64,000 nt of DNA from Candidatus Zhuqueibacterota bacterium (lineage in GTDB: Bacteria; Zhuqueibacterota; Zhuqueibacteria; Residuimicrobiales; Krinioviventaceae), in NCBI GenBank assembly GCA_016929295.1, contig JAFGJB010000061.1, forward strand, positions 5,318 through 69,317. The letters are read 5' to 3'. The notes under the pieces are model-generated. The model was given only the letters and a program-made list of their open reading frames with translations. It did no database searches and was not told the origin of the DNA. Below are positions 61,454 to 64,000 of this stretch, piece after piece. The position numbers were made by a program, and so were the translations under genes. Within the stretch, counting starts at the first letter, position 1. Each line of letters begins with the position of its first letter.

Positions 61454-61531
61454 TTAGCAACATCAATAATGGGTGAAAAAGGAGGAGAGCGCCGCAGCGC
61501 CCTCCTGAGGATAGTGCAGAAGGGGCAATGG

Positions 61532-62299
61532 CTATTCTTTCTCGAGCTCCTGTACGACATGATAGACATCTCTGTTGCCAATTTTGGCATGGTCGACGAA
61601 TTTGGTCTTTGTCCGATAGCCGGCGGCCGAAATTTGGATGATATGGTCTTCGTTTCTGCTCACATCGTAGCGTAAAGGCGATTGCCCGACGACTTTGTCG
61701 TCCACAATGATTTGGGCGTGCTCGGGCACCGTGTTGATTTGCAGCGTGACGACCTCACTGATTTGCGGGAGTTTTTGCGGCTCGTCGCGGCGCTGGCGCG
61801 CCGTGGTCGGCGCCGAGAAATCCTCCAGCCTGGCGGTGAAATACATGGTCCTGTTCACGGGCTCGCCGTTCGGGCGCTTGACAATCTCCGCTCGCACCAC
61901 GGTCTTTTTGTCATGTTGCACGCGCATGAGCTCTTCCGATTTAATTTCATATTTATCTTCTCCCCAGCCCACGTAGGCATAATAATACGCCTTCAGATCA
62001 TAATAACCCGGCCGCATGCGCAGGCGGTAGGTATATTCATTCTGCACATTTGAAACGAGCCAGTCAGGATTGATTTTGTGGTCATTAATGTAAAGATCGA
62101 GACGATTCTTATAACTGCTTCCCTCGTCGGCAACATTGTCGATGATGATGATGACATTTTCCTCGACCTGTTCCGGAAGTTCCAACTGCTTCACCGGTCG
62201 AATGGCATTGTATGCTTCATCGACGGTGACCTGTCCCTTGCAGCCGACGAGCAACCATGCTGCCAAAAGGAGCAGCGCGCCCGACAGATATCTTTTCAT
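61532..62299 (-). CDS. PEGA-domain lipoprotein
   Basis: Lipobox LVGC; C-terminal INTVPEHAQIIVDDKVVGQSPL..H.I.ISAAGY. Confidence 0.8.
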   Translation of the reverse strand: MKRYLSGALLLLAAWLLVGCKGQVTVDEAYNAIRPVKQLELPEQVEENVIIIIDNVADEGSSYKNRLDLYINDHKINPDWLVSNVQNEYTYRLRMRPGYYDLKAYYYAYVGWGEDKYEIKSEELMRVQHDKKTVVRAEIVKRPNGEPVNRTMYFTARLEDFSAPTTARQRRDEPQKLPQISEVVTLQINTVPEHAQIIVDDKVVGQSPLRYDVSRNEDHIIQISAAGYRTKTKFVDHAKIGNRDVYHVVQELEKE

Positions 62300-62377
62300 T
62301 TTTTGCCTCCGTGACGATATAATTCAGGAATTCATCTATTTGACGAAACGATCATGAGAATGTTTACGATGCTGCTA

Positions 62378-64000
62378 TTAAAACGATTGAACAGTGTCCT
62401 TTATTTCTTCCTCCTCGCCGTCAAGAGCAGAGAGAATGATCTGGTGCGGCACAGCCCGCAGTGCGCCCCATTCCTGCCACTGGCCGGGCAACTGCTGCAA
62501 CTGTTCGATGACGGCCGGCAATTGCGCGGGCAGAATCCAGCGAAAATCGCTGATATTTTCGCCCTCATCTTGCGCCCGCGGCGCCCCATCGTCGACAGCT
62601 ATGTCAAATATATAGGAGAGAAACAGCGCCGTCTGCTCTTGACAGCGAAATTCATAGAGCAACAGCGCCAGCAACCGAGACGACACGGCGCGCAAACTTG
62701 TCTCTTCAGCCAGTTCTCGCTCGAGAGCGTCGATGGCGCTTTCATCCGCCCGAATGCCGCCCGTCGGGATCCGATAGGCATCCGGCGGATAGAATGACTT
62801 GGTGTGCAAGAGGATGGCGTCCTGGCGGTTGCGGATGAACAGCACGACCTCACCACGCCGCTGCGTTTCACCGTACAGGCGAACACGCCATTGTGCAAAG
62901 TGTTGCTCGCCAAGAGTGAGGCGGGTGTGATAAAATGTCGTCGGCCCGTATTTTTCGTGCAGATCAACTATCTCATCACGCAAGACATCCGCGATGCGCG
63001 CTCGGGCGCAAAAATCGTTCAACTCAAGCTCTTCGTGCATACCAGGCTCTCTTTCCGCCGCTTCAGCGGTCAGGTCGTTGTTCTTGACCCATTGGAATTT
63101 CACCCGCAGGGTTTTGGAATAATATTTTTCCAGCACATCATAGTCCACCCGATTCCCCCAGTTGTAAAATATTCTCGGATCGATATACGATTTCTGGCTG
63201 GTCACCAGGTTCCAGGTGCGATTTTCCATGGCGATCGCCATCTGTGCCCGCAGCCTGCCCAACGCGGCCTGCGCGCGCGCCTCGCGACCTGCGGCATTTT
63301 CGATGCGCTCTTTGAGAGCATCGATTTTTTGTGTGTATCTCACGGCCAATTTTTTCGCCTGGGCGCGATCGCGGCACCTTTTTTTCTTCTCGGCAAACTC
63401 TTTTTTGACGTTGTTCAGCGTCGATTTGTGCTCTTTGGCAAGCTCTGCAATTTTTTTGACATTTTCGGCCGCCGATTTTTCGCGCTCCTTATACCGTCTT
63501 TTGCGCTCACCCCAATTCTTCGGCGCCTGGCGGGTGTGGTTGCAGAGGATAGCCGCTTGCGTATTTGCCTGGGTCGCTGCCTCCCACTTTTTATACTCTG
63601 GATCGTGGCGCGATATAGCGGCGGCGTCCAGGTTGTCGCGCACGACCTGGCTGGCGTGATGCGTCCGGAACACCTTGGCGGTCAGCCCCGGCATGACTTG
63701 CGACAAAAAGGCATTGACGTTGCGGCTGCTGACATCCGGGAAGAGCTGCGGCCGGTTGTAGACCGAGTGTTTTTTTGCGCTGGCCGATGACGGCCTGGCA
63801 TTCTCCACGAGCTCTTGCAGATTTGCGATGACGCGTTGCGGCAGGGCAATTTTTTTATGCCACAGAACCGAGTCCTTGCCTAAAAAACGGAACTCGACGA
63901 CGTCCGTATGAATTTTGATATGCTCCGGCCTCAGGGTCGTTGCGCCGACGGTGTCGGCTTCGTCCGGATCCTTTTCGTCGCCGACACGCAGACAGAGCTC
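62378..64000 (-). CDS. top1: Eukaryote/archaeal-type DNA topoisomerase IB fused to a C-terminal NUDIX hydrolase (5' end beyond the window)
   Basis: Frame is open to the window edge: ELCLRVGDEKDPDEADTVGATTLRPEHI..FLGKDS..GLTAKVFRTHHAS..AAILCNH..[K/E/R-rich linker]..TSQKSYIDPRI..KYYSKTLRVKFQW; then Nudix box GGIRADESAIDALERELAEETSL. Confidence 0.92.
   Translation of the reverse strand, partial: ELCLRVGDEKDPDEADTVGATTLRPEHIKIHTDVVEFRFLGKDSVLWHKKIALPQRVIANLQELVENARPSSASAKKHSVYNRPQLFPDVSSRNVNAFLSQVMPGLTAKVFRTHHASQVVRDNLDAAAISRHDPEYKKWEAATQANTQAAILCNHTRQAPKNWGERKRRYKEREKSAAENVKKIAELAKEHKSTLNNVKKEFAEKKKRCRDRAQAKKLAVRYTQKIDALKERIENAAGREARAQAALGRLRAQMAIAMENRTWNLVTSQKSYIDPRIFYNWGNRVDYDVLEKYYSKTLRVKFQWVKNNDLTAEAAEREPGMHEELELNDFCARARIADVLRDEIVDLHEKYGPTTFYHTRLTLGEQHFAQWRVRLYGETQRRGEVVLFIRNRQDAILLHTKSFYPPDAYRIPTGGIRADESAIDALERELAEETSLRAVSSRLLALLLYEFRCQEQTALFLSYIFDIAVDDGAPRAQDEGENISDFRWILPAQLPAVIEQLQQLPGQWQEWGALRAVPHQIILSALDGEEEEIKDTVQSF

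Follow-up and report, generated by a model that had tools for sequence, protein, structure and literature searches.

The end of the 64,000-nucleotide stretch of DNA analyzed here (the window) raises the question of whether a bacterium can carry a type IB topoisomerase (TopIB) of the long form as a gene of its own, and from where such a gene would have come. Published accounts (PMC4824112, PMC8748870, PMC8185306, PMC12395588) restrict long TopIB to eukaryotes and a subset of archaea and allow bacteria the short form only. A literature search on topoisomerase IB, KSB1, Chloroflexota, and Topoisom_I_N returned no paper describing a long TopIB in bacteria. An initial interpretation of this DNA (the sequence-only reading) had proposed a eukaryote- or TACK-archaea-type TopIB, explained either by an archaea-to-bacteria transfer or by an under-described bacterial clade. 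The host is a sediment bacterium represented by a 367-contig metagenome-assembled genome (MAG), and its order is probably candidate division KSB1.

The TopIB motifs quoted in the sequence-only reading are all present in one minus-strand frame, and the codon that it gave for the active-site tyrosine is exact (Table 1). The frame, described as open to the window end, indeed continues past it in the genome's own contig up to a GTG start preceded by AAGAGG, and the 5′ part of the TopIB gene is therefore neither frameshifted nor missing. At the other end, the lower gene boundary placed at 63086 had to be abandoned, since the same frame runs on to its stop and encodes a NUDIX domain; the gene, described as a TopIB alone, is thus a C-terminal Nudix fusion that had been missed. 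Residues 1 to 570 make up a complete long TopIB with Topoisom_I_N, core, two-helix linker, and C-terminal domain.

Table 1. Features of the TopIB-Nudix gene; positions are those of the window or, past its end, window-equivalent
Feature	Position	Strand	Remarks
TopIB-Nudix gene, 802 codons, one open frame	62381-64786	-	786 bases past window end
In-window part of the gene	62381-64000	-	
Stop codon	62378-62380	-	
Codons 1-262, including entire Topoisom_I_N	Topoisom_I_N at 64163-64777		past window end
GTG start	64786		genome's own contig
Catalytic core, Pfam Topoisom_I, residues 213-447	63446-64000 in window	-	core start 64150, outside window
R267 in LRVGDEK	63971-63991	-	
K304 in FLGKDS	63869-63886	-	
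R374 in KVFRT	63662-63676	-	
H417 in LCNH	63536-63547	-	
Linker, two long antiparallel helices, residues 425-470 and 474-521	63224-63514	-	AlphaFold2 model
C-terminal domain, Pfam Topo_C_assoc, residues 511-570	63077-63256	-	
Tyr534 codon in KSYIDPR (63173-63193)	63185-63187	-	
KFQWV	end at 63086	-	
Fusion junction AAEREPGMHEE, residues 576-586	63029-63061	-	DNA alignment G000 vs G001 and Logan contig
Nudix-hydrolase moiety, residues 583-802 (220 residues)	62381-63040	-	Pfam NUDIX match 62510-62857
Nudix box GGx5Ex7REx2EEx(S)L, residues 676-698	62693-62761	-	
Family-specific C-terminal Nudix motif WxEWGxxRAxPH	62444-62479	-	

Profile searches recovered all three Pfam domains of the long form. 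Topoisom_I_N (PF02919) spans residues 4 to 208 and model positions 5 to 213 of 213 with 164 bits (cut-off 25), while the Topoisom_I core (PF01028) and Topo_C_assoc (PF14370) reached 202 and 54 bits, respectively, far over their cut-offs. The catalytic residues R267, K304, R374, H417, and Y534 are invariant in all 18 aligned sequences and, by comparison with PDB sequences, align with the human LRAG, GKDS, VFRT, and CNH motifs; we take the human pentad to be R488, K532, R590, H632, and Y723. Among solved structures, the top sequence match was Caldiarchaeum TOP1 (6z01, E = 1.4e-129), human TOP1 matched at E = 1e-68, and the short forms of Deinococcus and vaccinia matched at 2.5e-6 and 1e-3. The AlphaFold2 model of the TopIB part, which was modeled apart from the Nudix part, had a mean pLDDT of 90.4 (linker helices above 90) and superposed on human TOP1-DNA complexes (1K4T, 1A36, and others) over 583 columns, linker included (TMq 0.79, TMt 0.81, rmsd 4.1 to 4.4 Å, 30% identity). 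Both proteins have the catalytic pentad and a coiled-coil linker, whereas the long charged N-terminal extension of human TOP1 is absent here.

Short bacterial and poxviral TopIBs are compact, at about 310 to 350 aa; their N-terminal domain is small and of the viral type, and they lack a linker. The TopIB part studied here is 580 aa long, includes Topoisom_I_N and a linker, and has no Pfam match to the viral-type N domain at E up to 0.1. The protein shares its catalytic fold and chemistry with the short enzymes of Deinococcus radiodurans (2F4Q/3M4A), variola (2H7G), and vaccinia (1A41), but only 205 to 242 columns align (TMq 0.23 to 0.31, sequence E of 2.5e-6 or weaker), and for 2F4Q and 2H7G the alignment is confined to the catalytic part. 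According to PMC4824112, the small N-terminal domain of short TopIBs is a different one, and they possess neither linker nor Topoisom_I_N. By every feature tested, the protein is a long-form TopIB, and the observation made in the sequence-only reading is confirmed.

As described in PMC4824112 and PMC8748870, TOP1 of Caldiarchaeum subterraneum (CsTOP1; 6Z01/6Z03) has the same CAP, core, linker, and C-terminal layout. The five catalytic residues are common to both enzymes, which are 42% identical in a Foldseek comparison; the global TM score against 6Z01 is just 0.45 to 0.51 because the model is a closed clamp and 6Z01 an open one. The protein differs from CsTOP1 in its bacterial host and in its 220 extra C-terminal residues, which form the Nudix domain. 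CsTOP1 has been shown to relax supercoils of either sign through a 3′-phosphotyrosyl intermediate, requiring neither ATP nor Mg (PMC4824112). By homology, the bacterial enzyme would clamp duplex DNA between its CAP (Topoisom_I_N) and catalytic lobes, and Tyr534, assisted by R267, K304, R374, and H417, would nick one strand to form a 3′-phosphotyrosyl link. The DNA would then swivel before the strand is resealed, and supercoils of both signs would presumably be relaxed with no need for ATP or Mg.

Within the host's own order, 39 of 41 genomes proved to carry TopIB, including the one studied here (G000). Across the phylum, PF02919 was detected in 43 of 167 genomes, with 38 of the 42 own-order kin and all four genomes of family f6 positive, and in none of 120 genomes from the other 20 families searched. 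Long TopIB was also present in about one-fifth (50/251) of the sampled genomes of one Chloroflexota class, and at least 583 stretches of the GTDB collection (one genome per species) code for a relative. The under-described bacterial clade that had been postulated therefore exists, occurring in one order and one further family of this phylum and in Chloroflexota. As a simple replacement of a dead TopA, TopIB was considered and rejected, since the genome also holds an intact TopA of 867 aa with Toprim, catalytic domain, and zinc ribbons. Family f6 has TopIB, and its one strong type IA match is of the usual length (approximately 762 aa).

The neighboring genes, already read as bacterial, encode an ABC-F protein, a PEGA lipoprotein, and a receiver-PglZ regulator, and synteny is conserved in the kin examined, with a PorX-like regulator upstream of TopIB and a PEGA lipoprotein downstream. 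The GC content of TopIB resembles that of the adjoining DNA, and comparison with the sister species gives it a dN/dS of 0.13. That the nearest solved structure is archaeal could suggest that the gene lies on archaeal DNA that was mis-binned or became attached to a bacterial contig as a chimera. However, the closest relatives (55 to 79% identical) have bacterial names wherever the source names the organism, the flanks are bacterial and the GC content even, and a Logan contig runs unbroken from the Nudix end into TopIB. In addition, the same neighbors recur in kin, and one kin genome that also has the TopIB gene (G011) consists of one contig of 6.5 Mb. The synteny shared with kin shows that the contig is no chimera; archaeal mis-binning or chimerism is refuted, and we consider its probability negligible. 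TopIB is not a recent import and is a stable, selected chromosomal gene of a whole bacterial order and of about one-fifth of the Chloroflexota class sample.

The relationships of the enzyme were analyzed in a careful, unrooted IQ-TREE phylogeny of 70 rows by 581 columns. All bacterial long TopIBs formed one clade (100/100), in which Chloroflexota was the sister bacterial clade to the own-order TopIBs (100/99). Bacteria and Asgard archaea together formed a clade of 34 rows (100/99), with a Promethearchaeota sequence as sister to bacteria (96/83), and FastTree with 195 rows gave the same picture. Eukaryote-like sequences, a label given from the N-terminal extension and one PDB comparison, lay on the far side of the tree. 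The CsTOP1-like rows P0143 and P0145, which scored best to 6Z01, fell outside the bacteria-plus-Asgard clade, the eukaryote-like and Caldiarchaeum-like labels together being based on N-terminal extensions and three PDB comparisons. An AU test rejected the 22 named archaea as a group apart from bacteria (p = 0.0043), this group having been chosen after the tree had been seen. In these trees, built from long forms, the protein falls within the archaeal long forms, and by its sequence E-values it groups with long and not with short bacterial or poxviral TopIBs.

The TACK or Thaumarchaeota affinity that had been suggested gave way to an Asgard one, as the nearest nonbacterial relatives in the trees were TopIBs from Promethearchaeota, Thorarchaeota, and Heimdallarchaeota MAGs (L062 to L099). 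They are 41 to 57% identical to the protein over the best aligned segment, and none has a Nudix gene nearby; the Thorarchaeota type, at about 670 aa, exceeds the TopIB part here (about 580 aa) by some 90 residues. Chloroflexota long TopIBs are 53 to 59% identical, and some bear a C-terminal extension of about 165 aa that is unrelated to Nudix (no blastp match and nothing in Pfam); bacterial long TopIBs thus show repeated gain of C-terminal add-ons. In these sequence trees, the bacterial clade is nested among archaeal long forms. A single bacterial clade placed beside Asgard fits one old archaea-to-bacteria transfer, a direction that follows from assuming the root outside the bacteria-plus-Asgard clade. 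Of the transfer put forward in the sequence-only reading, the archaeal nesting was thus upheld, but the event appears old and was not into this chromosome. Since the clade is bacterial yet nested among archaeal sequences, transfer and bacterial clade hold together instead of being alternatives, and both are supported. The clade would have entered bacteria once, anciently, from an Asgard-like archaeon, and TopIB would afterwards have been inherited vertically in one order of the phylum.

The C-terminal moiety matched Pfam NUDIX (PF00293) with 52.5 bits (cut-off 21.1). The Nudix consensus is GX5EX7REUXEEXGU, of which every Glu and Arg position is intact here, while a Ser takes the place of the final Gly, as it does in homologue P0124. 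The model of this part (pLDDT 90.4) has a Nudix fold and matches 469 PDB chains at E up to 0.001, those listed being Nudix enzymes. An ESM Atlas search confirmed the family only. The moiety did not fall into a named subfamily (such as MutT, RppH, NudC, or ADP-ribose pyrophosphatase), as its best NCBIfam matches stayed below their cut-offs (RppH, 29.6 bits against 139; MutT, 22.6 bits against 148) and no solved homologue stood out as the closest. Stand-alone KSB1 and Chloroflexota Nudix hydrolases of about 210 aa (P0123 to P0134) are 31 to 54% identical to residues 572 to 802 and have in common with them the box, an N-terminal helical extension, and a C-terminal WxxWGxxRAxPH; they are separate proteins, whereas here the domain is covalently joined to TopIB. 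The Nudix moiety has a dN/dS of 0.19 to 0.28 and looks catalytically competent.

In the sister species (G001), Nudix stands as a gene of its own, and its ATG overlaps the stop codon of TopIB (ATGA overlap). An alignment of the two DNA sequences places an AGA codon (63050-63052) where the sister has its TopIB stop TGA, and the ATG at 63038-63040 (M583) matches the region of the sister's Nudix start. The downstream Nudix gene, which in the sister is translationally coupled to TopIB, probably became an in-frame C-terminal domain when the TopIB stop was lost (TGA to AGA) and the length changed by one base. Alternatively, the fusion might be an assembly or sequencing artefact, and the cell would have a TopIB of about 580 aa and a Nudix protein of about 215 aa from separate, translationally coupled genes, as in the sister. 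It was seen in one genome only, itself a 367-contig MAG, and the genes are separate in all three kin in which they are directly adjacent (G001, G009, and G016). No protein of 406 to 2000 aa with this Nudix was found in a longer-protein search, a weak piece of evidence because the 802-aa protein itself is apparently missing from that collection. The independent sample's coverage also misses the junction: run X2 (other study, same species) covers four gene pieces, 62750-63172 not among them, and coverage by run X3 ends at 62980. Nonetheless, an artefact would require two separate differences from the sister, the TGA-to-AGA change and the length change that restores the frame. Moreover, an independent Logan contig from a second assembler (2820 nt, depth 16.6), probably from the same sample as the MAG, spans 62300-63692 without a gap or a single difference, reads the junction identically, and has no indel variants listed. 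We thus regard an artefact as unlikely, and the TopIB-Nudix fusion as a new domain architecture. As to expression, no RNA datasets are listed for the stretch, and one metatranscriptome run of the source study gave no sequence there.

Whether the two activities belong together is a separate matter. Nudix could be a dedicated partner of TopIB in a bifunctional enzyme and might, for example, act on a nucleotide-linked group at DNA or RNA ends where the topoisomerase works. A fusion is classic Rosetta-stone evidence for such a partnership. The two genes have an overlapping stop and start in G001, and TopIB is followed by Nudix on the same strand within 4.5 kb in 7 of 40 kin. In the phylum scan, the Nudix family was present in 30 of 42 own-order kin, with no strong match in 124 other genomes, which restricts it to the TopIB-bearing order; together with the linkage in 7 kin, this means that the two may still be functionally linked in the lineage. 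Among the best fold matches are NudC, RppH, and NUDT12, which are RNA-decapping enzymes, but all the matches are weak and unspecific (E of 2e-7 to 4e-6 and 15 to 25% identity for the best 50 Foldseek matches). In most kin, moreover, the two genes are distant or on separate contigs, and this Nudix is missing from TopIB-bearing family f6 as well as from genera g12 and g16, which also have TopIB. Outside the kin, none of 80 loci has Nudix within 3 kb of TopIB. Codistribution in the Chloroflexota class sample was examined and dismissed, with Nudix in 23 of 50 TopIB-positive and 90 of 201 TopIB-negative genomes (46% versus 45%; Fisher p = 0.88). A complex prediction for TopIB and Nudix (residues 12 to 231 of the Nudix alignment; score 0.01, mark 0.32) is evidence neither way. 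Given the lack of association with TopIB in Chloroflexota, Nudix is probably not a dedicated partner, and we find such a partnership improbable. As the Nudix family occurs independently of TopIB, the fusion is read as incidental, a joining of two coexpressed genes that is specific to this lineage and was probably neutral or of mild advantage, and not as a dedicated two-enzyme machine.

We therefore favor, with good confidence, a functional long TopIB that entered bacteria once from an Asgard-like source in ancient times and descended vertically, and to which Nudix was joined incidentally by stop loss. Quite improbable in our estimation is a true bifunctional enzyme of this lineage alone, in which the topoisomerase clamp would carry Nudix along DNA and Nudix would strip an NAD/ADP-ribose-type or polyphosphate adduct from nucleic acid ends or nascent RNA where torsional stress builds up. 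If this were true, the coupling of TopIB with Nudix would be without known counterpart, and the bacterial long TopIB would be a eukaryotic signature protein that two bacterial phyla had received from Asgard-like archaea, which would bear on arguments that root the archaeal tree by TopIB distribution. Under the favored explanation, all bacterial copies trace, as far as their sequences indicate, to one archaeal-like source, and long TopIB loses some of its value for marking ancestry as archaeal or eukaryotic. Bacterial enzymes are now on offer for studying TOP1 mechanics, and the Nudix fusion provides a simple test case for the cooperation of two activities.

Every motif cited in the sequence-only reading was found exactly as given on re-reading the minus-strand frame, including the Tyr codon and the KFQWV end at 63086. 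That reading had placed the gene at 63086..64000; its motifs and frame stood but its lower limit did not, as the frame runs on below 63086 to a stop codon. Recovery of the 5′ part, which had also been proposed, showed that the frame goes 786 bases beyond the window end on contig C166 of the source genome (G000), of which the window covers positions 5318-69317, to a GTG start with AAGAGG just ahead of it. Since the frame extends both ways, the gene comprises 802 codons. A profile search matched the three topoisomerase IB (TopIB) domains that had been expected, together with a NUDIX domain.

Features of the TopIB-Nudix gene, its product, and other genes of the source genome
Feature	Position	Basis or remark
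Complete gene (802 codons, -)	62381-64786 (window-equivalent)	reading frame
Stop codon	62378-62380	reading frame
Tyr codon	63185-63187	confirmed
TopIB part	residues 1-580	
Topoisom_I_N	residues 4-208	Pfam, 164 bits
Topoisom_I	residues 213-447	Pfam, 202 bits
Linker helices	residues 425-470 and 474-521	AlphaFold2 model
Topo_C_assoc	residues 511-570	Pfam, 54 bits
Nudix part	residues 583-802	
NUDIX	residues 644-759	Pfam, 52.5 bits
Receiver-PglZ (PorX-like) regulator (+)	L002 3984-5405; window-equivalent ~64870 onward	beyond window end, divergent from TopIB
E. coli-type TopA (-)	G000:C332, L102 601-3204	867 aa, full domain set
Type IA paralogue (+)	G000:C231, L103 895-3114	739 aa, sub-threshold Toprim

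Among solved structures, the top sequence match was 6Z01 (E 1.4e-129), the TOP1 of Caldiarchaeum subterraneum (PMC8748870), and the next was human TOP1 (E ~1e-68), whereas the short Deinococcus and vaccinia enzymes matched merely at E 2.5e-6 and 1e-3, respectively. In an alignment of 18 sequences (34-79% identity), residues R267, K304, R374, H417, and Y534 do not vary; they align with the catalytic motifs of human TOP1. In the AlphaFold2 model of the TopIB part (mean pLDDT 90.4), the linker consists of two long antiparallel helices. Superposition of this model on human TOP1 in complex with DNA gave TMq 0.79 and TMt 0.81 over 583 columns, while alignment to the short forms is limited to 205-242 columns. 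Judged by sequence and modeled fold, the TopIB part has all the features of the long form, and the activity of such an enzyme is predicted for it.

A contig chimeric with archaeal DNA, one of the possibilities that could have undone the sequence-only reading, is ruled out because the kin genomes (same order, probably candidate division KSB1) share the flanks and the GC content is even over the gene region. The TopIB gene is flanked by an ABC-F ATPase and a PEGA-domain lipoprotein, with the PorX-like regulator divergent upstream, and in kin genomes it is flanked by the same regulator and the same lipoprotein. The position of the regulator beside TopIB is kept in most kin loci inspected, in several genera. 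The TopIB part was found in 39 of 41 genomes searched in the order, the source genome counted and a partial copy at the end of a contig (G022) included; in the same search, G014 (86% complete) and G039 (92% complete) had no TopIB match and only the Nudix part was matched. The closest proteins elsewhere share 55-79% identity and are ~580 aa long, and the 12 named organisms among the 120 closest proteins listed are KSB1 (7), “bacterium” (2), Calditrichota (1), Candidatus Oleimicrobiaceae (1), and Chloroflexota (1), with no archaeal name among them. The dN/dS of TopIB relative to the sister species is 0.13. Chimerism and recent import of TopIB are thus excluded. Near-identical pieces of the gene (0-3 differences) were also present in X2, a freshwater sediment metagenome from another study and year, and the species therefore occurs beyond the source sample.

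Topoisom_I_N was detected in 43 of the 167 genomes of the phylum, with matches in 38/42 kin of the same order and in all four genomes of family f6; none was detected in the 120 genomes of the phylum's other 20 families or in 14 control genomes. When genome_contigs (GTDB genomes, one for each species of bacteria or archaea) was scanned, at least 583 stretches encoded a relative. The best 80 of these comprised 42 bacterial loci, labeled Chloroflexota (36), “bacterium” (5), or Cytophagia (1), and 38 archaeal loci labeled Thor-, Prometh-, Heimdall-, Jord-, Bathy-, or Aenigmatarchaeota, Thermoproteota, or “archaeon.” The TopIB of the Cytophagia-labeled locus (L022, from the MAG “uncultured Cytophagia bacterium”) has the same sequence as its counterpart in G002, which belongs to the same genus as the window, and the label therefore looks wrong or loose.

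The class to which one Chloroflexota hit belongs was sampled evenly (251 genomes, each ≥85% complete), and TopIB was present in 50 of the sampled genomes. Six genomes of that class (G208, G317, G249, G413, G344, and G286) scored 218-238 bits for Topoisom_I_N, versus ~150-185, with frames of 788-832 aa, and may represent a second, more eukaryote-like long TopIB lineage in bacteria. Many Chloroflexota long TopIBs (L027, L031, L033, L040, L048, L050, L052, L054, L055, and L056; proteins P0069, P0075, P0085, P0099, and P0109) reach 728-773 aa owing to a conserved ~165-aa C-terminal extension with motifs such as IRTCMxSDL...FLPxLxKxWxEA, for which Pfam gave no match and which does not resemble the Nudix part. 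Long TopIBs of bacteria seem to acquire C-terminal domains readily. Thor-type archaeal TopIBs (Thorarchaeota/Promethearchaeota, L062-L096) are uniformly ~670 aa, some 90 residues more than the ~580 aa of the TopIB part studied here.

A FastTree phylogeny of 195 rows (98 locus ORFs of ≥480 aa, two shorter ones left out, and the 97 of 150 representatives covering query positions 30-540) placed all 62 bacterial rows and 2 unnamed representatives in one clade (support 100), divided into KSB1-like and Chloroflexota groups and nested in a 90-row clade with Asgard sequences (support 100). An unrooted IQ-TREE analysis (LG+C20+F+G4 PMSF) of 70 hand-picked rows and 581 columns recovered the bacteria (ultrafast bootstrap/SH-aLRT, 100/100), the KSB1-like (97/91) and Chloroflexota (100/99) groups, the bacteria with one Promethearchaeota sequence (96/83), and the bacteria with Asgard (100/99). 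The eukaryote-like representatives (100/100) lay at the opposite end of the tree; these are unnamed sequences recognized by N-terminal extensions of ≥100 aa and one check (P0185 against human TOP1, 532 bits). Four further unnamed representatives, P0170, P0176, P0187, and P0195 (520-577 aa), which lack such an extension and may be of viral, archaeal, or protist origin, form their sister group (99). L075, labeled Bathyarchaeia, groups within the Heimdallarchaeota, a position suggestive of mis-binning or recent transfer. Constraining the 22 named archaeal rows to form a clade of their own, separate from the bacterial and eukaryote-like rows, a constraint formulated once the tree had been seen, lowered the log-likelihood by 52.9 units and was rejected (p-AU 0.0043). 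The two alternatives offered from the sequence, an archaea-to-bacteria transfer and an under-described bacterial clade of long TopIB, both hold. With a root outside the bacteria-Asgard clade, the simplest history would be a single archaea-to-bacteria transfer, followed by either a transfer between the KSB1-like and Chloroflexota phyla, for which the data give no direction, or early divergence.

TopIB as a simple replacement of type IA activity was considered and rejected. The genome encodes an intact TopA, along with a type IA paralogue whose Toprim and acidic motif are degenerate and just one gene of the GyrA/ParC type. In the order itself, most strong TopA frames measure ~865-990 aa, against ~730-790 aa for most of those elsewhere in the phylum, f6 included; genomes with two matches are mostly in this order, most others having a single copy. 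Given the intact TopA and these lengths, TopIB is no simple substitute, and the order has a remodeled set of type I enzymes.

The C-terminal part of the protein matches stand-alone Nudix hydrolases of ~210 aa (31-54% identity), 12 of which were found; those bearing an organism name are all from KSB1. Its Nudix box is intact, with Ser in place of the last Gly, a change shared with one homologue, and its model (pLDDT 90.4) shows a Nudix fold with a helical extension at the N terminus and a long helix at the C terminus. No subfamily could be assigned, as NCBIfam matches were far under the cut-offs and Foldseek returned NudC, RppH, NUDT12, MutT, and Ap4A hydrolases about equally weakly. In the sister species (G001), TopIB ends in GAA TGA, a stop that shares bases with the ATG of Nudix (ATGA), and in the kin genomes G009 and G016 the two are separate genes ~75 nt apart. 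In the source genome, the corresponding codon is AGA, and a one-base length difference right after it holds the frames joined. Read continuity, proposed as a check over 61500-64000, was upheld for 62300-63692, where a Logan contig from a different assembler and probably from the source sample (2,820 nt, depth 16.6) is identical; the X2 pieces, compared over 62300-64000, leave the fusion junction uncovered. We consider it likely that the fusion is real. The Nudix part may even so be translated separately, from an internal start at M583.

A lineage-specific functional link of the Nudix protein to TopIB is suggested by gene proximity: the two directly adjoin in 3 of 40 kin genomes and lie 1.5-4.5 kb apart, with Nudix downstream on the same strand, in four more, all of family f1. 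It is also in line with the restriction of strong Nudix matches (E ≤1e-30) within the phylum to the TopIB-bearing order (30/42 kin); the four f6 genomes had no match at E ≤1e-5, where the search ended, and the other 20 families (120 genomes) gave just two weak matches near 1e-6. However, no Nudix gene lies within 3 kb of TopIB at any of the 80 loci outside the kin, and the family occurs in three of five outside TopIB-bearing genomes (two labeled Chloroflexota and one unnamed bacterium). Moreover, it is common in the Chloroflexota sample (113/251) and equally frequent with (23/50) and without (90/201) TopIB, which makes such a link improbable. We conclude that the Nudix protein is a widespread, predicted small hydrolase that by chance became an operon neighbor of TopIB in one KSB1 family and then a C-terminal domain in one species.

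The available text of published work assigns, among prokaryotes, the long TopIB to archaea and the short form to bacteria (PMC4824112, PMC8748870, PMC8185306, PMC12395588). No account of a long TopIB in KSB1 or Chloroflexota was found in the text of the openly accessible literature that was searched; public annotation already names the closest proteins “DNA topoisomerase I.” What is new is the KSB1 lineage, the vertical inheritance across its order, and the fusion to Nudix, which is probably real and unique to the lineage, its significance being uncertain. Overall, the gene encodes an authentic and complete long TopIB, a member of a large bacterial clade that is of archaeal origin and has been little described.
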